A DNA stretch of 32,000 nt from Methanothermobacter thermautotrophicus str. Delta H (GTDB lineage: Archaea; Methanobacteriota; Methanobacteria; Methanobacteriales; Methanothermobacteraceae): contig NC_000916.1 of assembly GCF_000008645.1 (NCBI RefSeq), positions 270,001 through 302,000 on the forward strand, read 5' to 3'. Within the stretch, counting starts at the first letter, position 1. Each line of letters starts with the position of its first letter. The notes beneath the pieces are model-generated. The model searched no databases and was not told where the DNA came from. It worked only from the letters and a program-made list of their open reading frames with translations. Of the stretch, positions 1 through 31,383 are shown piece by piece. Made by a program: the position numbers and the translations under genes.

Positions 1-1
1 A

Positions 2-1974: not shown

Positions 1975-1976
1975 GG

Positions 1977-2486
1977 ATGGTTAAAATGTCTGATGTATGG
2001 TCTCTTACTAACTTTTACATGTCTCTAAAAGAAAACGAAAGAATCTTATTCCACCCATTCCCTTTTAGATACCCTCTAGTTTTTTTGATAATATTATACT
2101 TTGCTTTTTCAAATTTTTTGTATGAATACCTCGATTTAATAAATAATAAGCTTTCTGTAATATCATTGGTAGCGGAGCATGAGGGATCGATTCAGGGGTT
2201 TGTGTTTATATCAAATATTAAAGAACGGAAGGTTGCTAAAAATTTTGGTATAGTTGTGGGGAGACGTTGGCGAGGTCGGGGAATTGGAAGGAACCTTGCT
2301 GATGCTATGATTGATATCTGTAAAAAAGAAGGAATTAATGAGATACATTTAACTGTGATGGCCAAAAACAAATCTGCAATCTCATTATATAAAAAATTAG
2401 GATTTGAGGTTACCGAATATCATGAAAAAAGAGAAAGATGGGGAGGTAAATTCTATCCTGATTATAGTATGGTTTTCTGGGGCTGA
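1977..2486 (+). CDS. GNAT-family N-acetyltransferase
   Basis: The acetyl-CoA motif is VVGRRWRGRGIGRNLADAMI...SAISLYKKLGFE. I prefer ATG 1977 to the in-frame TTG 1965 used by the ORF track; the start is uncertain. Confidence 0.75.
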   Translation: MVKMSDVWSLTNFYMSLKENERILFHPFPFRYPLVFLIILYFAFSNFLYEYLDLINNKLSVISLVAEHEGSIQGFVFISNIKERKVAKNFGIVVGRRWRGRGIGRNLADAMIDICKKEGINEIHLTVMAKNKSAISLYKKLGFEVTEYHEKRERWGGKFYPDYSMVFWG

Positions 2487-2490
2487 TCCT

Positions 2491-3396: not shown

Positions 3397-3433
3397 CTCT
3401 TGATCAATCAAAACTTGATTTCTGGGTGAATCC

Positions 3434-6720: not shown

Positions 6721-6956
6721 TTTTTTGTATCTGGTAAAATCGGGCTTTGTAAAAATATAAGTGATTTTCTTTTGTTTTATTTTTGGCTTGGCTAAGGTTA
6801 GGGAGCAGTAGAATTCTTTAGGAACAAATACTGAGGATTCCTCATGTGAACTTCCATTCTACATTTAGATTAGGATTCGAAAGGAGATTATATAAACTTC
6901 AAAAAGTAATGTATCGATGATACAATCGTTTATGGGATCTTAAGGAGGAGGCGAAT

Positions 6957-8159
6957 TTGGTGAAATTCTTGGTTTTGGGTGTCAATAAAGATAACAAAGG
7001 CAATGAAGCCCTTGTGAAGTCAACCGTTGCAACAATAAAGTCCTTGATTGAAAATTGCAATTTTGTGTTTGTGGGTGTTAGAAATGAAAAGATTAAAGTT
7101 GATAATTCCTATTATTCTGTTTTAGAAAACCCCACTTATGAAATGAGTTTAAAGAAACCTTTAATGGTTTTGGGATCATTATTCCTACTTCTAAAAATTT
7201 TTCTATTTAAAAGGTTAAAAATGGAGATGAAATTTGAAAATAATATTATTTTAAAAAATATTCAGGAAGCCGATGTTTTAATTAACACTGGCGGCGACCA
7301 TCTCTCGGGGGAATATGGAAGGTCGATTATAATAACACTTGTTAATCTTCTGTACGCCATTCTCTTAGATAAACCTGTTGTATTGTACTCTGAGAGTTTG
7401 GGCTATCCTAAAAATAGATGTCTTGGATTCCTGCTAAATTATGTTCTCGAAAGGTCTTCTTTAATATTAGTAAGAGAACCCAAATCCTATGAATATCTTC
7501 AGAATAGTTTAAAATCAAAAAATTATTACCTAACAGCCGATTCGGCATTTTTATTGAATCCTTCTTCAAGGAACCAAAAAAACGAAAATGATAACCATGT
7601 CATAGGTTTTAATGTGAGCCCCTTAATAACAAATTTTGCTAAATCTCTTGATATTCTTAAACTATCCATAGATACAATCGATTTCCTCCTTAAAAACAAG
7701 AATGTGAATGTTTTACTGGTTCCCCATGTATACGGTGAGGACTCTGACCTTAAGATCCTCTCTAAAATTTATGAACATTTTGATTCAGAGAGGCTTTTAC
7801 TTATAGATAAAGAATATGATGCCGAGGAACTTAAATCAATTATAGGTCAGTGTGATCTCTTCATAGGCGCCAGGATGCATGCAACCATTGCAGCAACCTC
7901 AATGTTCGTACCCACCGTTGGGATAGCATACAGCCACAAGATGCATGGTATCATAGGCGAGATGCTAGGCCTGGAAGATTATATTATAGATATCGAGGAT
8001 CTCAACTCTGAAATCTTAATAGAGAAGACATTAAAGGCATGGGAGAACCGGGAGGAAATACAGGACCACCTCAGAAAGGTCATCCCTGAGGTTAAAATGA
8101 AAGCATGGAAGAATGGAGAGCTTGTTAAGGAACTATGCGACTCACTTGGAATCTCCTAA
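6957..8159 (+). CDS. Polysaccharide pyruvyl transferase (CsaB/WcaK-like)
   Basis: 400 aa. The motif CDLFIGARMHATIAATSMFVPTVGIAYSHKMHGI is typical of the family. AGGAGGAG lies upstream of the TTG/GTG start at 6957/6960. Confidence 0.75.
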   Translation: MVKFLVLGVNKDNKGNEALVKSTVATIKSLIENCNFVFVGVRNEKIKVDNSYYSVLENPTYEMSLKKPLMVLGSLFLLLKIFLFKRLKMEMKFENNIILKNIQEADVLINTGGDHLSGEYGRSIIITLVNLLYAILLDKPVVLYSESLGYPKNRCLGFLLNYVLERSSLILVREPKSYEYLQNSLKSKNYYLTADSAFLLNPSSRNQKNENDNHVIGFNVSPLITNFAKSLDILKLSIDTIDFLLKNKNVNVLLVPHVYGEDSDLKILSKIYEHFDSERLLLIDKEYDAEELKSIIGQCDLFIGARMHATIAATSMFVPTVGIAYSHKMHGIIGEMLGLEDYIIDIEDLNSEILIEKTLKAWENREEIQDHLRKVIPEVKMKAWKNGELVKELCDSLGIS

Positions 8160-9362
8160 AAAATCCATTCTTGCCTTTAGAGCTACAATCATAGAATAGA
8201 AAAAGATATACCTCCTTTTAATGGTCCATGGGATCTTCAACCGTGATGGTTCAAATGATAGGATGATTCTGTCAATGAAATCTATCTCAGGAAAACTCCC
8301 ATTATACATGGACCTTCTGCACAACTTTTTCTTCATGTAAATATTATATATCTGTGAGAGGAGTGCCTTTTCAGGTTTAATCTTATCCATCTCACATATA
8401 CCACCTTTCAGGATTCCGGCGAACTTCTCAGGCCATTTTCTAATGATTACAAGTGTCCTCCCTTTCTTTTCGTCTTTGAGTTCCTTGAGCCAGGGATCTG
8501 CAAAGGAGATGTCTGAGAGTTCTGCCATATGATCAGCGCATAGCCTGCATCTCTCAGGCATGAATAACTGCCCGAACCCGGATCCCCAGTACTCAGGTAG
8601 TAGTAGTAGGTCACCTGATTCTGTTTCAACCCTCAGACTCCCGGGCCAGCCCTCACCACGGTACCTTATGGACTTAACGTCCCCTGGATCAACACCAAGC
8701 CTTTCAAGGAGAAACTCCGTCGCCCTGAAACTTGGTGCATGATTGCAGACAATCCCCAGATGATAAACTATCCTCTCCCTCAGTTTTCTGCTGATCACCT
8801 CAGCCTTCCGCACCCCATGGATGTGGCAGGGCAGACCCACAACAGCGTACCTCCCCGGCACCTCAAGTATTTCTTTGAGGGCAACGTTGGCGGGTACGGG
8901 ACAGTACTTGGATCCCCTGCTCTCGATGATCTCCGAAGGCGTCCTTGCAATGAAGGGTTCAGGTTCAAGGGGCCTCTCGGGATTCATACGGGTCACAAGG
9001 GCGCCATCGATGAGGCCCTCCTCCAGTAGATAAATCAGGATCTGGCTTATCATACCACCGGAGGACGCACCATACCTGAGTTCATCATCACGGCTGTGGG
9101 CAATGTAGCACTCCTCATAATTACCCATCAGCATATCATCAGGTTCCCTTCCAAAAACCCTCATGTTGAGGTCAGTGAAGTCAACCCCCACTCCGGGGCA
9201 GACCCTCAGGCAGACACCACATCCATCACACTCACCATCAACAAGGGGTTCATAGACACCCCTATCATGATCTATTCTCATCACAACACTCTCAAGGGGG
9301 CACATCGCCGCACAGGTTCCGCAGCCAGTGCAGAGGTCCCCAACGTCGCCGACATTCTTCAT
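8142..9362 (-). CDS. FrhB/FdhB-like (coenzyme F420 hydrogenase beta-subunit family) Fe-S flavoprotein
   Basis: There are two ferredoxin-type motifs, CTGCGTCAAMCP and CDGCGVCLRVCPG. They are followed by RYGASSGGMISQILIYLLEEGLIDGALV, typical of the FrhB N-domain. Its start overlaps the stop of the upstream flippase gene (9359..10792) by 4 bp (9359-9362). Confidence 0.75.
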   Translation of the reverse strand: MKNVGDVGDLCTGCGTCAAMCPLESVVMRIDHDRGVYEPLVDGECDGCGVCLRVCPGVGVDFTDLNMRVFGREPDDMLMGNYEECYIAHSRDDELRYGASSGGMISQILIYLLEEGLIDGALVTRMNPERPLEPEPFIARTPSEIIESRGSKYCPVPANVALKEILEVPGRYAVVGLPCHIHGVRKAEVISRKLRERIVYHLGIVCNHAPSFRATEFLLERLGVDPGDVKSIRYRGEGWPGSLRVETESGDLLLLPEYWGSGFGQLFMPERCRLCADHMAELSDISFADPWLKELKDEKKGRTLVIIRKWPEKFAGILKGGICEMDKIKPEKALLSQIYNIYMKKKLCRRSMYNGSFPEIDFIDRIILSFEPSRLKIPWTIKRRYIFFYSMIVALKARMDFLGDSK

Positions 9363-10792
9363 GTATTCCTCCCCAGAAGGTTCATTAAAAGGGCCCTGTC
9401 CTCCTCTCTGAACTCACGCAGAAGGATGAGGGATATGAGGTAGATTAAAGCTGCTGCGCCTATCACCAGCAGCAGGTTGATCTCCCTGAGGGGGTAGATC
9501 ATCAGGGCCATGAGGGCTGATGCTGCAGCAGGTTTGATGAACTCCCGGTTCAGCTTCACATCCCCATGGGCTTTACCTATATAGTAGAGGAAGAGGATGT
9601 AGAGGAGGAGCTCAGAAAGCACCGTTGCAGCAGCAGCGCCGATATAACTGTAGTATGGTATGAGTATCATATTAAGGACTATGTTGAAAGCTGCACTTAT
9701 ACCAACACTAAGCATCCGGTACCCTTGCCGGTCAATGGAACTCAGAAGGGTCCCTGTTATGGTACTCACAAGCCGTATCGGGATGAAGAGTGCGAGTATC
9801 TGGAATGCAGGCACCGCTCCAGAGTATCCGCCGGCATAGAAAAGGCCTATGAATCTATCTGCAAGGACTAGGCATCCTGCAGCAACAGGGAAACCGGCGA
9901 TTGCAAGGTACCTCGAGGATATCCTTGTGAAGCCACTCAGCGACCCGGCATCCTCCCGGAAGTACCTTGACATGACCGGGTAGACCGCTGCAGACACCAT
10001 ACCAGCCACGATCATGCTGAGGGCCAGAAGAGGGTTGTAGGCAGCATTGTAGATACCCACCGCAACGTCATCCCTGAGAAGGCCGAGAAGAACAGTGTCA
10101 ATCTTAAAAAAGAAGACTGCGAAGAGTGAATTGAGACCGAAGGGCAGACCCATCAGGAGTAGTTTCTTCTGGAGCCCAGTATCAATGGATCTGGAAGGTC
10201 TTATGAACCTTCTGAAGCTCAGGGATGCTGCAACAGCAATATCCAGTATCCCTGCAAATACATAGACCCAGGCAACGACCATCAAACCGTACCCCATGAT
10301 GAGCACACCCAGTCCCAGGGTTACTATGAACAGCCTCTCTATGATCTGGAAGAGTGCAACGTACTCCATCCTCTCCCAGGCCTGGAAGAGTGACAGGTAT
10401 GTGCCTGAAACCGTTAAAAGAATATTGTAGATTCCAAAGAGATACAGGAGGATCGATGCATCACTAGACAGGTTAAAGGTCCACGCCAGGACGGCGATGA
10501 GGACGAATGTGAGGATTGAGAGGGGTATCTTCAGGAACACGGCATTGTTAACATAGTATGATGAAAGATCCCTTTCACGTGCAATCTCCCTTACGAGGAG
10601 CTGGTTAACCCCGAGATCGGTGAAGGTTACAAGTAGTGTTGTGAGGGAGAATGCGAAATTATATTTACCGAAACCGGCCTCTCCCAGGAACCTTGCAAGG
10701 TATATCATGAATACAAATGACATTAGGGCTGTTAATATCTGGGCACTCCCGGTAACACCGATGTTCTTGACTATCCTCTGGACCTGGTTCAT
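9359..10792 (-). CDS. MOP-superfamily polysaccharide flippase (Wzx/RfbX-like)
   Basis: 477 aa and about 12-14 hydrophobic segments. The N-terminus KNIGVTGSAQILTALMSFVFMIYLARFLGEAGFGKYNFAFSL is typical of polysaccharide biosynthesis/export proteins. Confidence 0.8.
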   Translation of the reverse strand: MNQVQRIVKNIGVTGSAQILTALMSFVFMIYLARFLGEAGFGKYNFAFSLTTLLVTFTDLGVNQLLVREIARERDLSSYYVNNAVFLKIPLSILTFVLIAVLAWTFNLSSDASILLYLFGIYNILLTVSGTYLSLFQAWERMEYVALFQIIERLFIVTLGLGVLIMGYGLMVVAWVYVFAGILDIAVAASLSFRRFIRPSRSIDTGLQKKLLLMGLPFGLNSLFAVFFFKIDTVLLGLLRDDVAVGIYNAAYNPLLALSMIVAGMVSAAVYPVMSRYFREDAGSLSGFTRISSRYLAIAGFPVAAGCLVLADRFIGLFYAGGYSGAVPAFQILALFIPIRLVSTITGTLLSSIDRQGYRMLSVGISAAFNIVLNMILIPYYSYIGAAAATVLSELLLYILFLYYIGKAHGDVKLNREFIKPAAASALMALMIYPLREINLLLVIGAAALIYLISLILLREFREEDRALLMNLLGRNT

Positions 10793-11018
10793 ATTTTAGC
10801 ACCTGAAACATGATTAAAGCAGATACAGACTCTGGCTATCCTGAAGATAAACTGGGAACGGTGCGGATCACAGTCGCCATTCAGTATCTGAAGTATAAAA
10901 GCTGTCGCATCATATCTCTGGCTTTTCATTAATATAACTGTTCATGGCCTTTTGGGGATCCTTCATCCCTGGGCCTCAATGACCCTCTCAGCGGCAGACC
11001 CTAACCTCTAAGATTATA

Positions 11019-12005
11019 TCACCCATAGAGTATCCTGCGGGGTTTCTCATTATCAAATCTCCCCCTGAGGCCATCAGAATAAGCGCTCAATATAAATCTG
11101 ACCCTCCTGAAGGGTTTCTCACGGATACCTGTAATTATCTGAGCTGCGACCGATAGGAGGATTGCTCTGACCATGAAAATGAATAAACGTGCCCTGCCCA
11201 TTTCCTTCCTCCGGAGCCATATGGAATTTCTGACACCGTAATACCGGAGCCACAGTTTATCGTAGGGTACCACCGGGATCTCCCTGCCGAAAAGACCCTT
11301 CGTGAGGTTACCCCTCTCCGCGGCTTCCTTGTGCAGAATCAGACTCCCGGGTACCAGGATGATCTTACCGGTACTCCTCAACCTCAGACAGTACTCCACA
11401 TCATCGTAATGCAGGAAGAATTCCTTCCTTGGAAATCCTATCTCCCGGACCGAATCAGAGTTTATCAGGATCCCCACAAAGGATGCATGATCAATTTCAA
11501 GGGTCTCCTCCCTTAAATCATCCTCTGTCACAGGCCTCACAAAGGTTCCGAAGCTGTCGAAGTCAAAGAAGCCCCTGTGTATGTACTGGGGCCTGCCATC
11601 CGGGGAGACCTTGAGGTTGGCAAGGGCCGCAGTATCATCATCCGCATATCTGAGCAGGCCCTGAAGACTATCAGGGAGTGGTTCAGCATCATCATCCATG
11701 AGCCATATCCAGTCGTATCCATCATGGAAGGCTCTCTTCACGCCCTCATGGAATCCACCGGCCCCACCCGTGTTAACGGGCAGTCTGACATACCTGATAA
11801 CGATTTCACTCCCATCAAGGGGGTTCTCAATCACTGCACCGTCCCTGTAACCCCTGCTCCTGAGGAGTTCAGGTGTCCCATCTGTTGAGGCATTGTCTAT
11901 GATGTAAATTGCATCTAAGGGTCCTGTCTGCCTCCGCAGGGCTTCAAGACACTCCACGAGTAAATCCTTACGGTTGTATGTTACGACAACGGCACAGACC
12001 CTCAA
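11019..12005 (-). CDS. Glycosyltransferase family 2 (GT2-A; candidate galactofuranosyltransferase by context)
   Basis: VVVTYNRKDLLVECLEALRRQT...IIDNASTDGT plus the DxD-type WIWLMDDDAEP. It sits directly downstream of glf. The substrate is inferred from context only. Confidence 0.8.
   Translation of the reverse strand: MRVCAVVVTYNRKDLLVECLEALRRQTGPLDAIYIIDNASTDGTPELLRSRGYRDGAVIENPLDGSEIVIRYVRLPVNTGGAGGFHEGVKRAFHDGYDWIWLMDDDAEPLPDSLQGLLRYADDDTAALANLKVSPDGRPQYIHRGFFDFDSFGTFVRPVTEDDLREETLEIDHASFVGILINSDSVREIGFPRKEFFLHYDDVEYCLRLRSTGKIILVPGSLILHKEAAERGNLTKGLFGREIPVVPYDKLWLRYYGVRNSIWLRRKEMGRARLFIFMVRAILLSVAAQIITGIREKPFRRVRFILSAYSDGLRGRFDNEKPRRILYG
11871..12004. repeat. Copy 1 of a 134-bp near-identical segment shared by the two GT2 genes
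   Basis: Hand alignment to 18121-18254 at offset 6250 bp gives 11 mismatches in 134 positions. Both copies have the same orientation. Confidence 0.85.
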
Positions 12006-12053
12006 GGCATCATCTCCTCACGCTTAACTCCCTTGCATGTGAAGACAGACCAC

Positions 12054-13196
12054 TCAAAGTATCCTCTCCTCAAAGACCTGGAGGGCCCGCAGGACGATAT
12101 CATCCATGTCATAGTAGCGGTACTCTGCAAGCCTCCCGACCAGTATAAGGTCCTCAAATTCTCTGGCAAGTTCAAGGTATCTTTCATACTTCGCCCGGGT
12201 CTCATCTGTGAATACAGGGTAGCAGGCCTCATTCTCCCCGTCTATGTGTGTGCAGGGGTACTCCCTCAGCAGCGTCGTCCTCCTGGAATCTGTGGGGTGG
12301 AGGTGTTTGAACTCGGTGATCCTGGTGAAGTCATAGTCGTTTGGGTAGTTGACGGTGGCAACCTCCTGGAACCACTCCGTGTCAGCGGATTCGAACTGGA
12401 GGTCCAGGGACCTGTAGGGGAGCTCACCATACCTGTAGCCGAAGAGCTCATCGATCTTACCCGTGAATATGACCTTCCCCCTGAACTCGGAGCCCATGAA
12501 GTGGATCTGCCCATCCCTCAGCTCGAGGACCTCATGGTGGCTGGTGTTGAGCATAAGCTTGATGCAGGGGTGGTCCAGCATCCTCTCAACCATGGCTGTG
12601 TAGCCGTCCCGTGGCACGGCCTGGTACCTGTCAGTGAAGTAGCGGTCATCCCGTGAGAGGACCACTGGCACCCTCCCTGTGACCTCGGGGTCCATCTCCT
12701 CTGGTTTCAGGCCCCACTGCTTCCTGGTGTAGTTGAGGAAGACCTTCCTGTAGACGTAGTCTGCAAGGAACTCTATGTCAGGGTCCCCTGACTCCCTGAG
12801 TTCCAGTATGGGGACCCTGGCACCGAAGCCGTACCTCCCTACCAGTTTCTCCTCGAGCCTCTCAGCCAGTGACTGGGGGAGGAGCATCCTCAGCGAGTTG
12901 AGGTTGAATGGCAGGGGGACCTTTGCCCCGTCTATGAATCCCAGGACACGGTGCTGGTACTCCCTCCATTCGCTGAACCCTGAGAGGTAATGGAAGACCT
13001 CCTCACTGTCGGTGTGGAGGATGTGCGGTCCGTACCGGTGCACCAGTATCCCGTTATCGTCAACCTCATCGTAGCAGTTACCACCAACATGTCTTCTTCT
13101 CTCAACAACCAGCACCCTCTCTCCGAGCTGGCTGGCTATCCTCTCTGCCATGACGGAACCTGCAAGGCCGGCGCCGACAATGATGTACTTGAACAT
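12054..13196 (-). CDS. glf: UDP-galactopyranose mutase
   Basis: 380 aa. It has the FAD-binding N-terminus MFKYIIVGAGLAGSVMAERIA...VLVVERRRHVGGNCYD. Length and overall layout match Glf. Confidence 0.85.
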   Translation of the reverse strand: MFKYIIVGAGLAGSVMAERIASQLGERVLVVERRRHVGGNCYDEVDDNGILVHRYGPHILHTDSEEVFHYLSGFSEWREYQHRVLGFIDGAKVPLPFNLNSLRMLLPQSLAERLEEKLVGRYGFGARVPILELRESGDPDIEFLADYVYRKVFLNYTRKQWGLKPEEMDPEVTGRVPVVLSRDDRYFTDRYQAVPRDGYTAMVERMLDHPCIKLMLNTSHHEVLELRDGQIHFMGSEFRGKVIFTGKIDELFGYRYGELPYRSLDLQFESADTEWFQEVATVNYPNDYDFTRITEFKHLHPTDSRRTTLLREYPCTHIDGENEACYPVFTDETRAKYERYLELAREFEDLILVGRLAEYRYYDMDDIVLRALQVFEERIL

Positions 13197-13206
13197 GACA
13201 ATGCAC

Positions 13207-14100
13207 CTAAATTTTCAGGTAATTCATTCCTATTGATTCCTTCTCAAGTAGCCACTTCAATTTTTTTATCTCAGCATCATCGGGGGCTGAGAAATCAGGC
13301 ATCTGGAGGTTCAGACTCCGGTACTTCTCAAGTCCCAGCCTGTGTATCCCGAGGACCTCAATGTGATCCACCATGTTCTCCCTGAGGAATCTGATGAGGG
13401 CCCGTATGTTCTCCCTGTTGAATGTGTAGGGCTTCACCGCCGGGAACCTCACTGTGAAGCTGCCATCAGAGATCCTTTCAAAGTTCCTCCTGAAAACCTC
13501 AGGGTCGCCGCCGGTGACCTCCCGGCACCCTGCATCATCCAGTATCTTCACATCAACCAGGAAGAGGTCCACCTCACCCTTTAACTTCTCAACCGCTTCG
13601 CCTGGGGCGAAGAGTGATGTTTCAACTGCTGCGGGGACTTCACCTATCCTGCGGGTGACACTGAGTATGCCATCGGCCTGGAGGAGGGGCTCACCCCCCG
13701 AGAAGGTGACACCGCCACCGGTGGAGCTGTAGTAGTCAAGGTCCCTGAGGATGACCTCTGCAACGTCATCTGCTCCTGTGAACTCACCGTAGACACCCAT
13801 CGCAGCTGAGGGGCAGCTTCCGGCGCACTCATGGTGTTCAGGGAACCTGAATATGTCCCGGGGCTTATCAAGGAAGCTGCATCTCTTCACACATTCAAGG
13901 CAGCCGATGCATTTCTCCTCTTTGAAGTAGACCTCGGGTTCTCCCCTTATATTTTCGGGGTTGCAGCACCAGGGGCACCGGAGGGTGCAGCCCTTGAGGA
14001 AAACTGTGGTCCTTATACCCGGACCATCATGGACGCTGAACCTCTGGATGCCGGTTATCAGGAGTTCATCCACTGTAACCACCATGCTCTGAGTATTCAA
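13207..14100 (-). CDS. Glycyl-radical enzyme activating protein (radical SAM)
   Basis: GIQRFSVHDGPGIRTTVFLKGCTLRCPWCCNPE carries the CX3CX2C radical-SAM motif. It also has the auxiliary ferredoxin motif CIGCLECVKRC plus ECAGSCP, and GGVTFSGGEPLLQ. The start may be ATG 14085 instead of 14100. Either start overlaps the GRE 3' end. Confidence 0.85.
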   Translation of the reverse strand: MNTQSMVVTVDELLITGIQRFSVHDGPGIRTTVFLKGCTLRCPWCCNPENIRGEPEVYFKEEKCIGCLECVKRCSFLDKPRDIFRFPEHHECAGSCPSAAMGVYGEFTGADDVAEVILRDLDYYSSTGGGVTFSGGEPLLQADGILSVTRRIGEVPAAVETSLFAPGEAVEKLKGEVDLFLVDVKILDDAGCREVTGGDPEVFRRNFERISDGSFTVRFPAVKPYTFNRENIRALIRFLRENMVDHIEVLGIHRLGLEKYRSLNLQMPDFSAPDDAEIKKLKWLLEKESIGMNYLKI

Positions 14101-15994
14101 GGGCCCTCCTGACTATTAACTCCCTGTACTCCTCTGGAAGGTCCCTGAAGTAGGCGCTGAATCCCCAGACCCTCACTATGAGGTCAGGGTAGAGTTCAGG
14201 GTTGTCCCTTGCCCGCAGGAGTACTTCAGGGTCCAGGACATTGACCTGGAGCTGCATAACACCCCTACGGAGACCTGTCCTTATGAGTGCCATGAATTCA
14301 TTCCCTGCACGGTCAAGGAATGGCCTGTCGACCATTATATCAACAACACCCCCATTGAAGGCCTTCAGGTAGTCCAGGGCTGCTGCAAAGTTTAGGACCT
14401 CGGTGTAGGACATGCCGTCAGTGAATTTAAGGGGGGAGATGTGGACGCCGAGGGGTTCACCTGCGTGTCTCCCATCAAAGGATGCCCCGGTGGATTCCCC
14501 CAGTGTTATGTAGACCGGGGAACTTAAACCGAACTTGTATCTCCCCCCGAGTTTATCATGCAGCATCTGGATGATGGTGTTTGTCAGTTCCACCACCTCA
14601 TCCTCGTCCATACCATACCCGGGAGAAATCAACTCGAGGCCCACCCTGAGTGCCTCGGCGGACCTGAAATCATCCCTGAGCACATCTTCAACCTCGGCGA
14701 TGTTCATCGTCTTCTCATCATAGCAGAGCCTCCTGATGTTGAGGAGGGAGTTTATCAGGTTCCCCATCCCCACGGTCAGCACCCCGTTGATGGAGTAGCC
14801 TGCACCATCACAGATATCCCTGGAGTTCCTGATACAGTCAGGGAAGAGGAGTGAAAGGAGGGGTGATGGTTCATTCCTGACCGACTCCACATTCTCCATA
14901 ACATCATCGATGTACCTGTGCAGCTCCTGCCGGTACCTCTCAAGCAGTTCACTGAATTCACCCCTGAACCCGTGGAGGGCATCCTCCAGGGGCTCCAGGA
15001 GGTTCAGATTTGCCAGGTTGTTCTGGTCAGAGGACCTCCCAGGGATGAGTGGCTCCCAGCAGGCAGATGTCGCGTACTCCAGGGCGTCTGATCTGCTGTA
15101 GTACTGACTGAGGGCGTCCACGATGACATCGTCATTGGAGAAGAGGGGATAACCGAGGCCCTCCCTGAGGCACCGGTAGCTGAGCTCCCATACATCATCA
15201 GGTGTTCTGCTGTTAACCCTGAGCACAACCTTGGGGTCGGGTATTCTGAGTTCCAGCATGACCTCCAGGAATATCCGTGTGAGGTCGTTGTATTCCCCTC
15301 CGAGGACAATCACCTGTCCTGTGTCCCCGGGGAGGACGTTGCTCTTGAACTCATAGCAGGAGGAGACGCTCAGGATGAAGTCCCTTATGAGTTCACGGGA
15401 CTCCTCAGGGTCCTCATGGTACTCCTTAAGGATGCTGTCGAGCCTCCCAAGGCCGATGAGGGGGTGCCCGTACATCCAGATGAGGGAATTCATGAACAGT
15501 ATTGACTGCAGTGCCTCCCCCAGGGTTTCTGCCGGCTTCAGGGGCACCCTTCTGAGTTTATCTGCGATTTCAGGTGAGTGCTCAGCGCACCTCTCAAGGT
15601 AGAGCTTAACAGCCCCCAGGGCCCTTCTGAGGATATCCGGGTAACCCCCAGGCTCATCTTCTATCATCTCCTCAATACCCTCAAGGCCCCTCTCAACCAG
15701 GAGTCCGTAGTCAGGTGTGAGGTTTCCAAGGCGCCTGTAACCCTCTGTCTCCAGGACATGGATCCCGGTGTCTATACTGTAGAAGAACCTGTCACCGGGA
15801 TTGAAATGTATGCGGGAGTCCCTGCAGACCTTCTCAAGTTGATGGAGCCTTCTTTCAAGGATGTCCTTTTTGCTGGAGCTGATTATCCTCGTTTTAATGC
15901 AACCCAGGCCCTGCTTCCGGTATAAGGCATGATAGGCCCTTAAATAGGGGAAGAACGGTGTTCTCCTTGCGATCTTCAGCATGGTGTTCTTCAT
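14066..15994 (-). CDS. Compact glycyl-radical enzyme (PFL-superfamily; substrate unknown)
   Basis: The C-terminus LQVNVLDPEVLLRARDNPELYPDLIVRVWGFSAYF parallels the PflB glycyl-radical region (Gly611, codon 14162-14164). The Cys loop is TSACWEP (Cys312, codon 15059-15061). The conserved strand FDGRHAGEPLGVHISP is present. The protein is 642 aa. Confidence 0.8.
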   Translation of the reverse strand: MKNTMLKIARRTPFFPYLRAYHALYRKQGLGCIKTRIISSSKKDILERRLHQLEKVCRDSRIHFNPGDRFFYSIDTGIHVLETEGYRRLGNLTPDYGLLVERGLEGIEEMIEDEPGGYPDILRRALGAVKLYLERCAEHSPEIADKLRRVPLKPAETLGEALQSILFMNSLIWMYGHPLIGLGRLDSILKEYHEDPEESRELIRDFILSVSSCYEFKSNVLPGDTGQVIVLGGEYNDLTRIFLEVMLELRIPDPKVVLRVNSRTPDDVWELSYRCLREGLGYPLFSNDDVIVDALSQYYSRSDALEYATSACWEPLIPGRSSDQNNLANLNLLEPLEDALHGFRGEFSELLERYRQELHRYIDDVMENVESVRNEPSPLLSLLFPDCIRNSRDICDGAGYSINGVLTVGMGNLINSLLNIRRLCYDEKTMNIAEVEDVLRDDFRSAEALRVGLELISPGYGMDEDEVVELTNTIIQMLHDKLGGRYKFGLSSPVYITLGESTGASFDGRHAGEPLGVHISPLKFTDGMSYTEVLNFAAALDYLKAFNGGVVDIMVDRPFLDRAGNEFMALIRTGLRRGVMQLQVNVLDPEVLLRARDNPELYPDLIVRVWGFSAYFRDLPEEYRELIVRRALEYSEHGGYSG

Positions 15995-17253
15995 AGCACT
16001 CCCATCCTTCTGAGTATGATATACTCAATGATTCCGATAATGATTTCGGTGGTGACAACTGCAACCGCGGCACCCGCTGAGCCCAGGAGCATGACAAGTC
16101 CCAGGAGGAGACCGACATGAACCACACCTGCAAATATGACGATCCTCGTGAACTTCTCCTTGTAGCCGAAGGATACCAGCCCCTGGACACCCAGGATGTT
16201 GTTGGCACCGATTGCAAAGATTATGAAGACCAGTATCTGGAGGAGGGGGATGCTCTCATCATAGGATGGACCCGCAAGTATCCCCACGATGAGGGGTGCG
16301 AGGAAGACGAGGGCAACAGACAGCCCGAAGGTCAGGACCCCCATGAAGATCAGCATCTTCCTCAGCTCATACTTCGCCCTTTCACGGTCATCCTTCTGGA
16401 TCCTTGAGAAGTAAGGGTAGATGGCCTGACTTATGGGTGATACGATCCCCTGGAGGGCCCTGGTTATATCCTCTGCCACAGCATAGTATCCAAGGGTTGC
16501 GCTGCTCACAAGGAGTCCCAGTATGAAACGGTTGGATGTGGTGTAGAGGCTTATGGCCAGGGTTGAAATGAAGAGGTGCCACCCCTCAAGGAGCTGCTCC
16601 CTTATATCAGCAGGGGATGGAATCATGAATTTCACACCGAATTCCCTCATGACTATCCTCTGACTGTATAAACCAACGGCCATGAATCCCGCCGAGTTTA
16701 TGAGGGGCACGTAGAGGTAATCTCCGGGTCCCCGCACAGCAAGGAATATGAGTGCGGTGTAGATGAGGGAGCTCACTATCCTCAGGATGCTTATGTACCT
16801 CATCCTCTCAACTCCCTGGAAGAACCAGACCGGGAAGAGGAGGTTGCCCACAACGAGGCCGTAGGTGAAGATGTAGAGGAGGTAATCTGATCTGAACCTG
16901 TCGATCAGGAAGACCGTGACGAGCATGGCCATGAATGTCACTGCCAGGAGGATTGTCTTTGTTACCATAACCGAGCTGTAGATCAGGGACACCCTTTCAG
17001 TGTCATCACGGTGTATTGAGATCTCCCTGGTGGCTGAGAAGTTGAAGCCATAGTCTGTCAGTATCTGGAAGTAGGTTATGAAGGCAACAGCGAAGGCGAC
17101 CTTACCGAAGTTGGCAGGACCCAGGACCCTGGTGAGGTAGGGGAATGTGATGAGGGGGAGGAGGTACTGCACGAGCTGTATACCTGTGAGTGAGATTATG
17201 TTATCCAGGACACGTCGATGTTCGCTGTTTGATAATGGTGATGGTATCTTCAT
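15991..17253 (-). CDS. MOP-superfamily flippase (Wzx-like O-unit flippase)
   Basis: 420 aa and multi-TM. LVQYLLPLITFPYLTRVLGPANFGKVAFAVAFITYFQILTDYGFNFSATREIS is a typical Wzx N-terminus. AAGGATGAT lies upstream. The GRE start overlaps it by 4 bp. Confidence 0.8.
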   Translation of the reverse strand: MKIPSPLSNSEHRRVLDNIISLTGIQLVQYLLPLITFPYLTRVLGPANFGKVAFAVAFITYFQILTDYGFNFSATREISIHRDDTERVSLIYSSVMVTKTILLAVTFMAMLVTVFLIDRFRSDYLLYIFTYGLVVGNLLFPVWFFQGVERMRYISILRIVSSLIYTALIFLAVRGPGDYLYVPLINSAGFMAVGLYSQRIVMREFGVKFMIPSPADIREQLLEGWHLFISTLAISLYTTSNRFILGLLVSSATLGYYAVAEDITRALQGIVSPISQAIYPYFSRIQKDDRERAKYELRKMLIFMGVLTFGLSVALVFLAPLIVGILAGPSYDESIPLLQILVFIIFAIGANNILGVQGLVSFGYKEKFTRIVIFAGVVHVGLLLGLVMLLGSAGAAVAVVTTEIIIGIIEYIILRRMGVL

Positions 17254-17313
17254 TCAATCATCCTTTCTCTGATGAGTTAATCCCTATGAGGAATGCCGGG
17301 ACCTCCAGAAGTG

Positions 17314-18255
17314 TTAGAATTCTCCCGGCTTCACGGTTTTTCCCCTTTTGAGAGTATATCCCTCCCAAAAAGCCTTTAAGAGGTATTTGAAACCGGATGG
17401 TTTATATTTAAGGCATTGATAGGTGACGATAATGAGGGTCCGCAGGGGTCTTAAATACCTCACAAGGATGTTCTCTCCATACTTCCTATCCAGATAGATC
17501 ACATTCCTCAGATGATAGAACCCCTTCCAGTTGAAATCTGGCTCTGCAGCCACTTTTTTGATGAGCCTGGCCCCTGATACCATATAAATTGGCCCATAAT
17601 CCCGCAGCCTGATGGCGTAGTCTGTATCGTCTGCAATGATGAAGAGGCTTTTATCAGGGAATCCTATCCTTTCTATGGCTTCTCTCTTTATAAGGAGTCC
17701 CTCAAAGGATATGGCTGATATCTTAAAGTATTCCTCTTTAAGGTCATCATCAGTTATAAAATCGTATGTGAAGTGTTTGAGGGGATTTCTGAAGTTGAAA
17801 GTCTTTGTCTCACTAATGAAGAGCGAACCCTGGAAGAACCTCACAGGAGCAACTGCGGAAACATCTTCAGGAATTCTTTCAGAGGCTTTGAGAAGTTTTT
17901 CAAGGGTATATTCTTCTGGTTCAACGTCATCATCCATAAGCCATATCCAGTCGTATTCATCATGGAAGGCTCTTCTGACACCCTTATAGAATCCTCCGGC
18001 GCCTCCAGTATTTTCATTGAGCCGCACATAGACAATTTTCAGTGACCGCCCATGATGGTCCGGCAAGTTTTTCACGGACCCATCCGGGTCATCTATGTAG
18101 CCCCCCTCCATGAGTAGATGGGGTGTTCCATCTGTTGAGGCATTGTCTATGATGTAGATTGCATCTAATGGTCCTGTCTGCCTCCTCAGGGCTTCAAGGC
18201 ACTCCACGAGTAAATCCTTACGGTTGTATGTGACGACAACAGCACATATCTTCAT
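17314..18255 (-). CDS. Glycosyltransferase family 2 (GT2-B, paralog of 11019..12005)
   Basis: 43 of the first 45 aa are identical to GT2-A (MKICAVVVTYNRKDLLVECLEALRRQTGPLDAIYIIDNASTDGTP). It has WIWLMDDDVEP. GGAGAGATGA lies upstream of the ATG. The 3' two-thirds is visibly lower in GC than its neighbours. Confidence 0.8.
   Translation of the reverse strand: MKICAVVVTYNRKDLLVECLEALRRQTGPLDAIYIIDNASTDGTPHLLMEGGYIDDPDGSVKNLPDHHGRSLKIVYVRLNENTGGAGGFYKGVRRAFHDEYDWIWLMDDDVEPEEYTLEKLLKASERIPEDVSAVAPVRFFQGSLFISETKTFNFRNPLKHFTYDFITDDDLKEEYFKISAISFEGLLIKREAIERIGFPDKSLFIIADDTDYAIRLRDYGPIYMVSGARLIKKVAAEPDFNWKGFYHLRNVIYLDRKYGENILVRYLRPLRTLIIVTYQCLKYKPSGFKYLLKAFWEGYTLKRGKTVKPGEF
18121..18254. repeat. Copy 2 of the 134-bp near-identical segment shared by the two GT2 genes
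   Basis: See copy 1. A second short near-identical block aligns 17929-17973 with 11691-11735 (2 mismatches in 45) at offset 6238 bp. Confidence 0.85.
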
Positions 18256-27290: not shown

Positions 27291-28994
27291 GTGCTAAACT
27301 TGGAACCTGATTCTGCAATCTTTGCAAGGAGACTCTCATTTTCATTTGCCCTTGCAGTTATAATCCTCTCGGCCCTCACAATCACGGGCCACCTTATGGG
27401 GATCCCCCAGCTAAGGGGAGAGATCATGGGATCACCACACACGCAGCCGATGACCGCCGCAGTGTTCCTGATGCTGGGGTCCGCCATAATTCTTCTCTCA
27501 AAGCAGATCAGAACCCCAGCGCTCTACATTGCAACCTTTCTACTTGTCTTCTACACCCTCACCGTCACCGGGTATCTTCAGACATCCATCACAGGGTACG
27601 GTTCAAACTCTCGCTTCATATCATCAATCCTCTTCATCATCTACGCCATCATACTGATCCTCTTTTCGTCCTCAAGGTACACGGCACCCCAGGTACTCGC
27701 CTTTTCAGCCGGGACAGTGGCCTACTGCGTGGCCACAGGATACCTTGGAGGTGTTGGAGTCTACGGCCAGTACTTCCAGATGGCATTCTACACCGCCATC
27801 CTCCACCTCCTCACATCCACATCATTCCTTAGCCTCTACCCTGAGGAGGGTATAGTTGCACCCATACACATGTCCTTCACCGGAGGGCATCTGGCCAGGC
27901 TGCTCATCCCCATCATGATAGCCAGCATAACCATCCTGGGCCTCTTCACCATGAAAATAAGTCAGAGGCTTTTCCCTGGATTCGGGGAGGTGTTCCTCAT
28001 GGGGATGACAGCCTCCCTCACCATAATAGTTGTTATCCTGGCATCGGATGAACTCAACAGGATAGATGAGAAGAGATCAGAATACCAGAGGGACCTCCTC
28101 GAGGCCCAGAAGTTCTTCAGGGATGTTGTTGAAAACCTTGCAGAGGCTGTGGCGGTCTTTGACAAGGAGGGGAGCATTATCTACAGGAACTCTGCCATGA
28201 AAAAACTGGGGATCATGGATCTTCCACGGCCATCATCCAGTGGCGAACCTGTCATGATTGAACAGATGAAGGTGGGTGATGGCCACTACACGGGATGGAT
28301 GGTTCCAAGGTTCTCTGACGGAAAATTCACAGGATACATCGTGTCACTCACAGATATCACGGACCTTATAGGGATACAGAGGTCCCTCGAGTCCACAGTG
28401 AGTGAGAGGGACGCTCTTCTTGCAGAGGTCCATCACAGGGTCAAGAATAACCTCCAGATAATCATGAGCCTCCTCAATATTCAGGCCATGAATGCCAGTG
28501 AAGAGGCGCGTGAGGTCCTGAGGGATGCCCAGAGCCGTGTGCGGGCAATGGCTATCCTCCATGAGACAATCTATGATAGCGGAAACTTCACTGGTGTTGA
28601 TATGGGGTCCTTCATAACAAGGCTCATTGAGAGACTTGTAAGCGCCTATGGGGTCTACGGTATCCACTTCAGGGTGGATGCAGACGTCCGGGTGAACCTT
28701 GAAACCGCAATACCCCTGGGGCTCCTCATAAATGAGGCGGTTACCAACTCAATCCGGCATGCCTTCCCCTCAGGGGAGGGCAGCATCACAGTGACGATGG
28801 AATCAGACGGGCTACTCTACCTGCGGGTTGAGGATGATGGTACCGGCATGGAGGGTATACCCGATGGTACCGTTGGTCTGTCGCTCATGAGGGCCCTTGC
28901 AGATCAGCTTGAGGGTGAACTTGAGATAGAATCAGATCAGGGTACTGTGGTGTCCCTAAGGTTCAGGGAACTCGAATACATGAAAAGAACCTAG
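27291..28994 (+). CDS. Membrane sensor histidine kinase (multi-TM sensor, PAS-like, HisKA_2, HATPase_c)
   Basis: H-box EVHHRVKNNLQIIMSLLNIQA, N-box LLINEAVTNSIRHAF and G-box VEDDGTGM are present. There are about 8 hydrophobic segments in the first 250 aa. The start is uncertain (GTG 27291 or TTG 27300). Confidence 0.8.
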   Translation: MLNLEPDSAIFARRLSFSFALAVIILSALTITGHLMGIPQLRGEIMGSPHTQPMTAAVFLMLGSAIILLSKQIRTPALYIATFLLVFYTLTVTGYLQTSITGYGSNSRFISSILFIIYAIILILFSSSRYTAPQVLAFSAGTVAYCVATGYLGGVGVYGQYFQMAFYTAILHLLTSTSFLSLYPEEGIVAPIHMSFTGGHLARLLIPIMIASITILGLFTMKISQRLFPGFGEVFLMGMTASLTIIVVILASDELNRIDEKRSEYQRDLLEAQKFFRDVVENLAEAVAVFDKEGSIIYRNSAMKKLGIMDLPRPSSSGEPVMIEQMKVGDGHYTGWMVPRFSDGKFTGYIVSLTDITDLIGIQRSLESTVSERDALLAEVHHRVKNNLQIIMSLLNIQAMNASEEAREVLRDAQSRVRAMAILHETIYDSGNFTGVDMGSFITRLIERLVSAYGVYGIHFRVDADVRVNLETAIPLGLLINEAVTNSIRHAFPSGEGSITVTMESDGLLYLRVEDDGTGMEGIPDGTVGLSLMRALADQLEGELEIESDQGTVVSLRFRELEYMKRT

Positions 28995-29175: not shown

Positions 29176-31383
29176 TTAAAATGGCAGTTCCGCGTAGTAG
29201 CCCTTTATACTGGCGCTCTTCCAGTTCTTTATGACTCCAAGGGAGTTCATGTTGCTTGATGCGTCAGCGTTAACCCAGGAACCATTTATGTAGAGCTGTG
29301 CCCAGACATGGCCGTAGGTGTTCCCTGAGACGAATGTGCATGTGGCATGCACATACCTGGCTGCTATGCCTGAGGCCCTTGAAAGGGCAACCAGGAGGTG
29401 TGTTATGTCAACACAGTTTCCTGTCCTGTTTTTGAGTGTGCCCACTGCACCGTACCTGGTGTTGTAGTAGAAGCTGTAGTCTATGTTGTCACGCACCCAG
29501 TTGAATATCGCTGTCGCCCTGGCAGTAACTGAGGTCAGACCCCTGGTGATGCTTGCTGCAAGGGATCTTATCTCTGTACTTGTAACCTGGCAGTTCGCTG
29601 TTGAGGCCAGGTAGCTGCCTGAGAATATGGAACTGTCAACCGTGACATAGTTGGGGAGCCTTCCATTATCCTCCTGGAATGCCACAACCTTTGACAGGCT
29701 GTAGAGGAGGACGTTGAAGCTCAGGGGCCCTGCACTGGATGATATCTGTGACGGCGCAGTGCCTGTTGATGACATGTAGCTCAGGACCTGTGACGCGATC
29801 TGCAGGTACTCATCCTTCTGGATTGTCCCTGAAGCCTTAAGGGTTGTGGCTGATGGTTCACTGAAGGATCCAGGTACAGGATCCTTACCTGTGAGGAACT
29901 CTGCCAGCAGGTAGAGGAATCCGGCGGGTGTAACCTGACTCTCACCGAGGCTAACATAATTGGGGAGCCTGTAATTTGACTCAACGAATGCCTTAACCCT
30001 GCTGGCGGCATCCATGATCATCGATGCGGTGATTGAATTTTCAGCAGACGGCTTTGTTGTTGCGGATGGTATCCCACCCAGAAAGTCTTTATCGATCAAC
30101 CCGTACCTGAAGAGGGCGTATCCGTCGGCTCCTCCACGGAGGGCTGAATCTATATCTCCCCTGAGCTCATCTGCAGGTATGGGCGTCACATCACTGTCGG
30201 ATCTGTAGGTCTGAAGTCCGGTCCACACCTGTGCACCGGGGCTCCTGGCCTTGATGTAGGCAGTTACATTCTGTATCCATGAGGAATCCTCCCGGTAGTT
30301 ACCCTTGTAGACCATCGGCACAAGGACGTCCAGATACTCTGCAAGCTGGGTGTAGTTCTGGCCATAGTAGTAGGCATTTGATCCCTTCTCTGGCATCAGG
30401 GCAGCCGACAGTAGAAGCCCGGGGTTAACAGATTTAACGGCTTCACTGATCCTCCTGACTATCCCTGTTATGGTTGCTGTTGAGTTGGGCACCTGGTATG
30501 CGTTTCCAGGGTACCGGATATAGTCGAGGTGGATACCACCAACCCCTGGAATGCTGGTGTATGATAGCACCCTCCGGGTGAGGTTATCAATGAACTGCTC
30601 TGCATAGCTTGTGTTGTAGCCGTATCTTGTCTCTGTACTGGTAACCGTCTTTGTAACTGTCCTGTACTTTATGGTGTAACGTGTCTCCTTGACGTACCTG
30701 TAGGAGGTTTTCTTAACGTAGCGGTACTTCCAGGTGTATCTCCACTTACCCCTGTACTTGTACCATGACTTGTACCACTTCTTCACATAGGTTGTGTAGG
30801 CCTTCTTCACTGTTACAGTGTAATAGTACTTGTAGGGTTCCTTGACTGTGACCTTGCTGGTGGTTGTAACATTGTAGGCGTACCTGCCGGTTGGGTCAAC
30901 CCATTTGCCGTTAGCATCCTTGAGGCAGATGACCCAGGCACTCACCCTTATACCCTGGGCTGAAGTGTTACCGAGGAATGAGGTGAGGTTTGCTCTGAAG
31001 CGTTCATCATTGAAGGCCAGCTGCTCAAGGAAAACATCAGATATACCCTTACCTTTGAGTTCACTGAGGTTGACCTTTCCCATGTCATAGGCCTTGACCC
31101 AGATGGCGCCGTGTGCCTGTTCTGTTGTTGTGTTTTCCTGTGTTTGTGTTGTGTTCTGCTCTGCTGTTTCTGTTGTGTTTTCCGTTGTTGTGTTTGTGTT
31201 CTGGGCCTCCATATCCTCTGTGCTGCTGTCTGCCATTTCAACGGCAGACGCCACATTTGAGCCCATGAATGAAAGCACCAGAACAAGGGCTATTAGAATG
31301 TTCAGCTTTCTCGAAATTTTACCGCCTCCACTGGGGCTAAAAACCCCATGTAGACTCTTAAAAAGGCCTTTATATATAAACAT
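29176..31383 (-). CDS. Exported multidomain protein: Thr/Asn/Glu/Gln-rich linker, glycoside-hydrolase-like TIM-barrel region, two pseudomurein-binding-repeat-like segments, C-terminal transglutaminase-like cysteine peptidase core
   Basis: Signal-like KLNILIALVLVLSFMGSNVASA. GGIHLDYIRYPG is a GHL-type TIM-barrel motif. The repeat-like segments are ASRVKAFVESNYRLPNYVSLGESQVTPAGFLYLL and LSKVVAFQEDNGRLPNYVTV. The peptidase core is GNCVDITHLLVALSRASGIAARYV...GHVWAQLYINGSWVNADAS (Cys657/His692/Asp706). The start is uncertain, because TTTATATATAAAGG (a TATA-box consensus) directly follows ATG 31383 and a GGAGG lies further downstream. Confidence 0.7.
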   Translation of the reverse strand: MFIYKGLFKSLHGVFSPSGGGKISRKLNILIALVLVLSFMGSNVASAVEMADSSTEDMEAQNTNTTTENTTETAEQNTTQTQENTTTEQAHGAIWVKAYDMGKVNLSELKGKGISDVFLEQLAFNDERFRANLTSFLGNTSAQGIRVSAWVICLKDANGKWVDPTGRYAYNVTTTSKVTVKEPYKYYYTVTVKKAYTTYVKKWYKSWYKYRGKWRYTWKYRYVKKTSYRYVKETRYTIKYRTVTKTVTSTETRYGYNTSYAEQFIDNLTRRVLSYTSIPGVGGIHLDYIRYPGNAYQVPNSTATITGIVRRISEAVKSVNPGLLLSAALMPEKGSNAYYYGQNYTQLAEYLDVLVPMVYKGNYREDSSWIQNVTAYIKARSPGAQVWTGLQTYRSDSDVTPIPADELRGDIDSALRGGADGYALFRYGLIDKDFLGGIPSATTKPSAENSITASMIMDAASRVKAFVESNYRLPNYVSLGESQVTPAGFLYLLAEFLTGKDPVPGSFSEPSATTLKASGTIQKDEYLQIASQVLSYMSSTGTAPSQISSSAGPLSFNVLLYSLSKVVAFQEDNGRLPNYVTVDSSIFSGSYLASTANCQVTSTEIRSLAASITRGLTSVTARATAIFNWVRDNIDYSFYYNTRYGAVGTLKNRTGNCVDITHLLVALSRASGIAARYVHATCTFVSGNTYGHVWAQLYINGSWVNADASSNMNSLGVIKNWKSASIKGYYAELPF

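Follow-up and report, generated by a model that had tools for sequence, protein, structure and literature searches.

The question raised by the locus described here is whether a single cellular protein could open both the peptides and the glycan of pseudomurein. The locus is one gene on the minus strand of a 32,000-nucleotide stretch of the Methanothermobacter thermautotrophicus str. Delta H chromosome (NC_000916.1, positions 270,001 to 302,000; hereafter the window). An earlier note on this gene had described its product as an exported fusion of a glycoside hydrolase (GH)-like barrel, pseudomurein-binding repeats (PMBRs), and a transglutaminase-like core. We confirmed the open reading frame (ORF), a hydrophobic, putative export segment (residues 27–47), and, with Pfam, all three types of module, and from these domains we classify the protein as a putative cell-wall hydrolase of the modular, two-headed kind, here fitted to pseudomurein and carrying a ribbon insert that is unusual. 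The reading that we favor, with slightly less than even confidence, is that it would be a housekeeping, secreted, wall-bound, “double-headed” pseudomurein autolysin.

To our knowledge, no archaeal wall other than pseudomurein resembles peptidoglycan. Only three enzymes are known to us to break pseudomurein, all of them peptidases of viruses (PeiW, PeiP, and PeiR), and we know of no housekeeping pseudomurein autolysin of the cell. The archaeal wall hydrolases were called “still very mysterious” in a review (PMC10791045), and the lysins described for methanogen viruses are only PeiW-like and PeiR-like (PMC11375127, PMC12596118). As the earlier note had supposed, our literature search turned up no established enzyme that cleaves the pseudomurein glycan; the same search returned no paper on DUF4015, the family of the present barrel, together with pseudomurein, and none on a GH-type lysin of a methanogen virus, and a 2026 paper on a C39-like “glycosidase” does not address pseudomurein. 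For both gaps, the glycan cleaver and the cell's own autolysin, the family described here offers a concrete candidate that can be expressed.

The motifs quoted in the earlier note are all present in the translation of the ORF: GIHLDYIRYPG at residues 283–293, NYRLPNYVSLG and NGRLPNYVTVD in the repeats, and GNCVD (C657), GHVWAQ (H692), and NAD (D707) in the cysteine domain. The first of these lies in the barrel, which had been assigned to GHL10/DUF187. The TIM barrel carrying GIHLDYIRYP stands, but its family is a different one: PF02638 (GHL10/DUF187) gave no match at E ≤ 1 in Pfam, either with the whole protein or with the barrel freed of its insert, while precomputed PF02638 matches exist for some homologues. 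The match is to DUF4015 (PF13200, “putative glycosyl hydrolase”), and it is marginal on the intact protein (E = 1.9e-6, 27.7 bits against a gathering cutoff of 27.0) because an insert of 90 amino acids (aa) splits the barrel; without the insert, the score is 37.3 bits (E = 2.2e-9, profile positions 59–240 of 313). GH18 (PF00704) scored 26.0 bits, under its gathering cutoff of 29.6. An AlphaFold2 model of the barrel, built with 79 family sequences, has a mean predicted local distance difference test (pLDDT) score of 94 and contains eight β-α units, i.e., a TIM-type (β/α)8 barrel. When the PDB was searched with this model using Foldseek, 231 barrel matches were obtained at E ≤ 1e-3, headed by the C-terminal domain of Escherichia coli PgaB (PgaB-C; E = 7.6e-9) and Clostridioides difficile Cwp19 (E = 9e-9), and followed by GH18 chitinases. 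A family profile without the insert found, among the PDB sequences, the GH18 protein 4wiw (6.7e-10), the spore-cortex enzyme YaaH (9.6e-5), Cwp19 (9.5e-5), and mammalian chitinases, together with an uncharacterized protein, 4s1a (3e-5), in which FDYIRFP and ILE correspond to LDYIRYP and MPE here. A structural search of BFVD with the barrel returned generic GH barrels only.

Across 73 homologues with a mean column identity of 48%, the residues D116, D287, E332, D352, D396, and D410 are invariant, as are many aromatic residues. The earlier note had proposed looking for a catalytic acid/base pair in a predicted structure, and the model does place two invariant carboxylates on the catalytic face, D287 at the end of β4 and E332 at the end of β5, although the GH18 acid itself is replaced. 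In an alignment with acidic mammalian chitinase, DGLDLDW-EYPG falls on dGIHLDYvRYPG, so that D287 corresponds to the oxazolinium-stabilizing Asp, which is kept. The barrel resembles PgaB-C, a glycoside hydrolase of poly-N-acetylglucosamine (PNAG), as well as GH18 and YaaH, in its best fold matches and profile hits and in the MxY motif of β6, but its substrate would be β-1,3-linked rather than β-1,4- or β-1,6-linked. A closer parallel in architecture is Cwp19, a peptidoglycan lytic transglycosylase that combines a GHL10 TIM barrel with CWB2 wall-binding repeats (PMC6016235, PMC5765458). Both proteins have an exported TIM barrel from the same structural neighborhood fused to cell-wall-binding repeats, and they share the G-[IV]-H-x-D...YPG motif after β4, the Tyr ending β6, and a long β3-α3 loop; they differ in that Cwp19 has a DUF187 rather than a DUF4015 barrel, acts on murein rather than pseudomurein, and lacks both a peptidase domain and a giant hairpin. 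We also considered equating D287 with the key Asp196 of Cwp19, which corresponds to Asp466 of PgaB after β4, but the profile alignment does not support this pairing: D195-D196-Y197 of Cwp19 fall on D287-Y288-I289, and D287 would be the counterpart of the buried Asp195.

The second head is a transglutaminase-fold cysteine domain. The Cys/His/Asp core seen in the earlier note is borne out by Transglut_core (PF01841; E = 2.8e-24, residues 606–708, 85.9 bits against a cutoff of 23) and by the invariance of C657, H692, and D707 in the 73 homologues. The label “Pei-like” holds for the fold and the arrangement of the domains but not for the Pfam family, which is PF01841 and not PF12386, the Peptidase_C71 model of the Pei enzymes (PMC10318531); precomputed PF12386 matches occur in some homologues only. 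A model of residues 436–735 (pLDDT 88.7) finds full-length PeiP (8z4f) as its best structural match in the PDB, with E = 1.5e-11 over 316 columns that include the repeats and the catalytic domain. Next in rank are 3isr, a putative protease of the transglutaminase-like type (26% identity), and the catalytic domain of PeiW (8jx4; target template modeling score 0.60–0.62). By profile, the domain is closer to the generic bacterial 3isr (8.5e-14) than to PeiW (2.1e-7) or PeiP (4.5e-6), with the NCxD, YGH, and YxFYYN motifs aligned, including the Cys of NCxD and the His of YGH; in a full-length sequence search of the PDB, 3isr was the sole convincing match, and PeiW remained at E = 0.27 until the family profile was used. 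The present protein and PeiW/PeiP (MEROPS C71, from viruses psiM100 and psiM2) thus share PMBRs followed by a transglutaminase-fold Cys-His-Asp domain at an identity of about 18%, but the Pei enzymes are viral and cytoplasmic, whereas the present protein is cellular and predicted to be exported, with three repeats in mid-protein behind an N-terminal barrel and hairpin. Two Pei traits, a viral or proviral origin and a missing signal peptide, do not apply here, as the chromosomal context and the hydrophobic N-terminal segment indicate.

The two heads are joined by PMBRs (PF09373, whole protein E = 5.8e-32, 108.7 bits against a gathering cutoff of 24.9). The repeats noticed earlier are real, but they number three and not two, the degenerate copy at residues 517–548 having been missed; the three were resolved by Pfam scans of separate sub-segments. 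In experiments with MTH719, at least three such motifs were needed for good binding to pseudomurein (PMC3124540), and the count here reaches this minimum. By analogy with the MTH719 and PeiW experiments, the PMBRs would bind the protein to the wall.

The earlier note regarded the fusion as unusual, and here it was mistaken. A full-length search found 388 homologues; of the 120 listed, most have DUF4015, PMBR, and Transglut_core together. They come from Methanothermobacter, Methanobacterium, and relatives (the protein of strain CaT2 is 83% identical, and one from a metagenome 94%), the combination being widespread in the Methanobacteriales, and they have already been named by machine as “pseudomurein-binding repeat-containing protein” or “transglutaminase domain-containing protein”. 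In other words, the domain combination is widespread, machine-annotated, and uncharacterized, and is not a discovery in itself. Searching with the barrel only gave 690 clusters at 50% identity, 217 of them at E ≤ 1e-30, with proteins of 244–1616 aa; among 143 representative clusters, a transglutaminase domain is present in 36 and PMBRs in 64, where they stand either ahead of the barrel or behind it. In the reference genomes, relatives at 34–57% identity are nearly all from the Methanobacteriales, so that the close clade is confined almost entirely to these pseudomurein-containing archaea, and those at 23–30% are scattered over many bacterial phyla. Barrel relatives at 34–43% identity were also seen in three metagenomic bins labeled Bacillota (L008), Paludibacter (L019), and Bacteroidales (L020), and they reflect either methanogen DNA placed in the wrong bin or a horizontal transfer.

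Further evidence on the role of the barrel comes from viruses. In IMG/VR, ten contigs encode barrel relatives, nine at 37–47% identity and one (L091) at 26%. The nine closer barrels keep D116, D287, E332, D352, D396, and D410 and the set of aromatic residues, with the sole exception of L082, which has Asn at the position of D116. It should be mentioned that GIHLDYxRY is invariant among the genome and viral loci in part by construction, as these loci were retrieved with that pattern; D287 lies within it, while D116, E332, D352, D396, and D410 lie outside the viral search patterns, and only residues outside both search patterns were used as evidence of conservation in the genome and viral loci. 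The clearest case is L083 (IMGVR_UViG_3300009503_000263), in which the barrel gene (about 3700–4709) follows the genes for the terminase large subunit and the portal and precedes those for a head-maturation protease and a virion structural protein. Its product has two PMBRs, 39–48% identical to the repeats of PeiW, PeiP, and PhiF1 Pei, and a DUF4015 domain (37.9 bits in Pfam) in the place of the C71 peptidase; the barrel part had no match among deposited phages. In L084, a tail-like gene and an integrase gene flank the one for a 589-aa barrel and PMBR protein, L085, L087, and L089 being similar, and the barrel gene of L082 is separated by 2.7 kb from the terminase and portal genes. The viruses use the barrel without a transglutaminase domain, and their proteins open with the barrel or with the repeats and have no hydrophobic N-terminus, as expected for endolysins, whereas the cellular versions have signal peptides. 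The viral proteins that combine the barrel with PMBRs may form an unrecognized class of pseudomurein lysin; judged from their domains, they lend new support to a lytic role of the barrel, and they offer an independent, simpler object on which to test it.

Two of these contigs, both proviral, also contain tandem arrays of paralogous ORFs of about 140–165 aa just upstream of the tail-like genes, eight in L084 (2–3498, plus strand) and seven in L089 (2–3082, minus strand). Those of L084 share the pattern ...VKDKNNL..WS.GD...Y[IV]DD, and the arrays may represent a diversified set of cassettes that bind receptors or carbohydrates.

The insert that splits the barrel, a basic segment of 90 aa at residues 167–256, was not mentioned in the earlier note. 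In the AlphaFold model, it is a hairpin of two antiparallel strands (residues 167–210 and 213–256) with a turn at R211-G212 and a pLDDT of 91–95, and it would extend for roughly 145 Å, at about 3.3 Å per residue; a self-standing β-ribbon of about this length would be an unusual structural element in itself. The segment is rich in Lys, Tyr, Thr, and Trp, with a net charge of about +21 and an isoelectric point (pI) of 10.1, and family-wide the inserts consist of 21% Tyr, 21% Lys, 13% Thr, and 9% Trp. Their lengths in the 73 homologues fall into classes about eight residues apart (47, 55, 63, 71, 78–79, 86, and 94), and the lengths of the two arms covary (r = 0.999) in steps of four residues per arm, the right arm having 19, 23, 27, 31, 35, 39, or 43 residues and the difference between the arms staying constant at 6–7. 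This covariation and the length classes provide support for the hairpin from the sequences, independent of the model. No DNA tandem repeats were found underlying the hairpin. It is inserted on the catalytic face, in the β3-α3 loop, and the equivalent loop is long in PgaB and Cwp19, where it contributes to substrate binding (PMC5765458). The insert is absent from 123 of the 137 representative clusters that have both barrel halves, the other 14 having 55–112 residues; among 257 fetched barrel proteins, the fusions of barrel and transglutaminase number 88 with the hairpin and 64 without. Hairpins were counted here by insert length, as a purpose-built hidden Markov model of the hairpin seldom scored, probably because of compositional bias. 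An 80%-identical relative in M. wolfeii lacks the hairpin, as do all ten viral versions. On these comparisons, the hairpin is an accessory element, and it would be dispensable for catalysis because the viral and many cellular versions do without it.

These observations can be combined into a possible course of action. The N-terminal signal or anchor would export the protein, an acidic and probably glycosylated linker would space it from the membrane, and the three PMBRs would dock it on the sacculus. The Cys657/His692/Asp707 domain would then form a thioester at an (iso)peptide bond of the stem peptide and hydrolyze it, as PeiW and PeiP do, a proposal that extends the common triad and fold to the bond attacked and to the hydrolytic outcome. 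The barrel would bind the β-1,3 glycan, which contains N-acetylhexosamine, in an aromatic-lined groove on its catalytic face and cleave it with D287 and E332, in agreement with the viral fusions of barrel and PMBRs. More speculatively, the basic hairpin could lie along the anionic wall or thread into it, positioning or restraining the enzyme. Like the earlier note, we infer a dual activity. Bifunctional autolysins and endolysins, such as Staphylococcus aureus Atl, with its amidase and glucosaminidase (PMC7679415), and the phage lysins that combine CHAP with a glycosidase, likewise have two catalytic heads, directed at the peptide and at the glycan of a wall polymer, and a repeat-based wall-binding module, but the binding module of the Atl-type enzymes is unrelated in sequence, their wall chemistry is different, and the two activities of the present protein are predicted ones.

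Several observations weigh against this autolysin, and they bear on the two heads differently. Thioester enzymes of the transglutaminase fold can either hydrolyze or transfer, and the protein could be a biosynthetic “cut-and-stitch” cross-linker, analogous to a bifunctional penicillin-binding protein, whose transglutaminase forms the Glu-Lys cross-links as the missing transpeptidase while the barrel holds, trims, or opens the glycan. The exported transglutaminases of the pseudomurein-containing archaea have in fact been proposed as the best candidate for the cross-linking enzyme, and not as hydrolases (PMC11915815). The orthogroup concerned, OG0000044 (PMC11915815; Leahy et al. 2010), consists of exported Transglut_core proteins specific to these archaea, and the present protein very likely falls in it or next to it, although the study discusses neither a fused barrel nor a hairpin. 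In the same direction, the domain matches the general PF01841 while the lytic C71 model (PF12386) gave no match at E ≤ 1 in Pfam, and the family occurs throughout the Methanobacteriales in multiple copies, with a barrel-less paralogue next door in strain CaT2. On the contrary, PeiW and PeiP, the nearest characterized relatives that act on pseudomurein and, with the repeats included, the best structural match, are hydrolases; the viral use of the barrel without a transglutaminase domain points to lysis for this module; and neither the window nor the published gene clusters link the gene to pseudomurein biosynthesis (PMC11915815). We consider a cross-linking role unlikely, while taking it seriously.

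The barrel raises objections of its own. The position of the general-acid Glu in the GH18 motif DxxDxDxE is occupied here by R290/I289, so that the canonical motif is absent; GVHFDDYFYPG of Cwp19 aligns without gaps with GIHLDYIRYPG, which puts the invariant Tyr288 at its key Asp196; and of 55 distant relatives from bacteria, no more than 20 have Glu at the position of E332. Catalysis would depend on D287 and E332 in a non-canonical center; plausible carboxylates are present, yet activity cannot be read from homology, and we found no enzymatic data for any DUF4015 protein in the literature or for any member of the present family. The missing GH18 acid, the first description of PgaB-C as a binding domain (PMC5765458), and the cataloguing of related PMBR and transglutaminase proteins of gut methanogens as adhesin-like proteins (PMC11532034) would suit a non-catalytic surface protein whose lectin-like barrel has lost hydrolysis and serves wall attachment or cell-cell contact. 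This we regard as very improbable: the Cys-His-Asp triad and the six barrel carboxylates are strictly invariant across sequences that are only 40–50% identical, and the viral use of the barrel without signal peptides, at lysis-type positions, argues for catalysis. A somewhat better case, though still quite an unlikely one, can be made for a barrel that cleaves another polysaccharide, for example a heteropolysaccharide, secreted or wall-associated, or a PNAG- or chitin-like polymer, with the PMBRs merely tethering the enzyme. The top structural neighbor, PgaB-C, cleaves an exopolysaccharide, the distant relatives at 23–30% identity are widespread in bacteria without pseudomurein, and a surface-polysaccharide biosynthesis cluster lies 11 kb away in the window; moreover, the viral barrels of L088 and L090 are fused to immunoglobulin-like domains, as in tail-fibre or tail-spike depolymerases, and a surface glycan other than pseudomurein is possible for this reason. 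With regard to the viral evidence in general, the IMG/VR contigs may include host flanks, and the barrel was not found in deposited methanogen virus genomes. However, PMBRs are fused on either side of the barrel in 64 of the 143 representative clusters, the close clade is limited to the pseudomurein-containing archaea, the barrel of L083 stands behind PeiW-type repeats in the usual position of the peptidase, and the polysaccharide cluster is not adjacent to the gene, its synteny with the gene not being conserved outside the genus.

Returning to the autolysin, a bolder version of it may be sketched, which we offer tentatively and with more doubt than confidence: the DUF4015-type barrel would be the founding example of an enzyme that cleaves the pseudomurein glycan strand, a “pseudomuramidase” or an analogue of the lytic transglycosylases, with a center unlike that of GH18 and built on D287 and E332. 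It would be shared by the host autolysins and by a hitherto unrecognized class of methanogen-virus lysins that have it in place of the Pei peptidase, and the basic hairpin of the cellular enzymes, with its stepwise lengths, would serve as a molecular ruler or tether whose length fits the sacculus thickness. If the glycan-cleaving activity is real, such a lysin could complement the Pei enzymes in lysing methanogens, for DNA or protein extraction and for the mitigation of rumen methane (compare PMC6189367), and the autolysin would give insight into the growth and division of pseudomurein-walled cells.

Table. Features of the ORF and the evidence for them (coordinates are positions in the window; residues are numbered from the annotated start)
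Feature	Residues	Coordinates	Strand	Evidence or details
Whole ORF		29176..31383	-	735 aa + TAA stop (29176-29178)
Putative signal peptide or membrane-anchor segment	27-47, LNILIALVLVLSFMGSNVASA, then VE	31243..31305	-	Kyte-Doolittle hydropathy
Acidic Asn/Thr/Glu/Gln-rich linker	48-90	31114..31242	-	pI 4.1, four N-T-T sequons
Barrel, N-terminal part (β1-β3)	91-166	30886..31113	-	Invariant W95, D116, W150, C153, W161
Two-stranded β-hairpin in β3-α3 loop	167-256	30616..30885	-	AlphaFold, arm-length covariation, composition
Barrel, C-terminal part (α3-β8)	257-432	30088..30615	-	Pfam DUF4015, model, Foldseek, profile against PDB
Motifs of barrel C-terminal part	GIHLDYIRYPG 283-293; MPE; PMVY359	D287 codon 30523-30525; E332 codon 30388-30390	-	
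Further marked residues of barrel C-terminal part	Y393, D396, D410, FRY425-427		-	
PMBR 1	449-478	29950..30039	-	PF09373 E = 2.6e-11, 43.5 bits
PMBR 2, degenerate	517-548	29740..29835	-	PF09373 E = 8.8e-10, 38.6 bits
PMBR 3	551-582	29638..29733	-	PF09373 E = 3.4e-10, 39.9 bits
Transglutaminase-fold cysteine enzyme domain	596-735	29179..29598	-	PF01841, triad, PeiP/3isr/PeiW matches
Triad codons	C657, H692, D707	29413-29415, 29308-29310, 29263-29265	-	

At its N-terminus, the protein looks as if it were exported through a Sec-type segment. The Kyte-Doolittle mean of residues 27–47 reaches 2.14 over 19 residues, the segment ends in VASA before VE, and a hydrophobic N-terminus is likewise present in the family consensus. 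The linker that follows is probably a glycosylated stalk, and the entire protein contains 15 N-x-S/T sequons. A GGAGG motif at 31325–31329 (minus strand) lies inside the annotated N-terminus, at about residues 18–20, and several homologues have shorter N-termini that begin just ahead of the hydrophobic segment; because of these two observations, the true start codon may lie downstream of the ATG at 31383, nearer residues 23–27. An NCBIfam scan of the protein gave noise only.

The gene is flanked by a convergent HisKA_2 membrane sensor kinase gene (27291–28994, plus strand) and a TrkA-type gene. A prophage origin was considered and rejected from this context, as the chromosomal surroundings, which comprise CobN, a hydrolase, the sensor kinase, and the TrkA-type gene, contain nothing prophage-like. 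The gene order is kept in Methanothermobacter sp. CaT2 and not outside the genus, and the neighboring sensor kinase gives no functional clue because the synteny is restricted in this way. HisKA_2/HWE-type kinase matches were seen in only four related loci, L003, L006, and L016 from the Methanobacteriales and L077 from a bacterium, and no response regulator was seen near the sensor kinase. In CaT2 (L081:4231–5835), a second protein with PMBRs and Transglut_core, of 534 aa and without a barrel, is encoded two genes from the orthologue, at a place that would lie past the end of the window (32000); it is preceded by a Na/H-exchanger-TrkA_N gene, and a sensor kinase, a glycerophosphotransferase, and a family 4 glycosyltransferase (GT4) follow, so that the region could be a local cell-envelope neighborhood.

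The surface-polysaccharide cluster mentioned above occupies positions 1–18255 of the window and, at 11 kb from the gene, has no obvious link with it. It encodes two GT4 and two family 2 (GT2) glycosyltransferases, two Wzx-type flippases, a pyruvyl transferase, a DUF2206 membrane protein, and a UDP-galactopyranose mutase. The G+C content of the first 8 kb of the window is 32–44%, as against about 50% elsewhere, and this lower value suggests that the cluster may be a horizontally acquired glycan island. Within it, on the minus strand at 13207–15994, are a glycyl-radical enzyme of 642 aa (pyruvate formate-lyase-like plus Gly_radical) and its radical S-adenosylmethionine activase; this pair adjoins the UDP-galactopyranose mutase, and it is unusual to find these enzymes together where a glycan is made.

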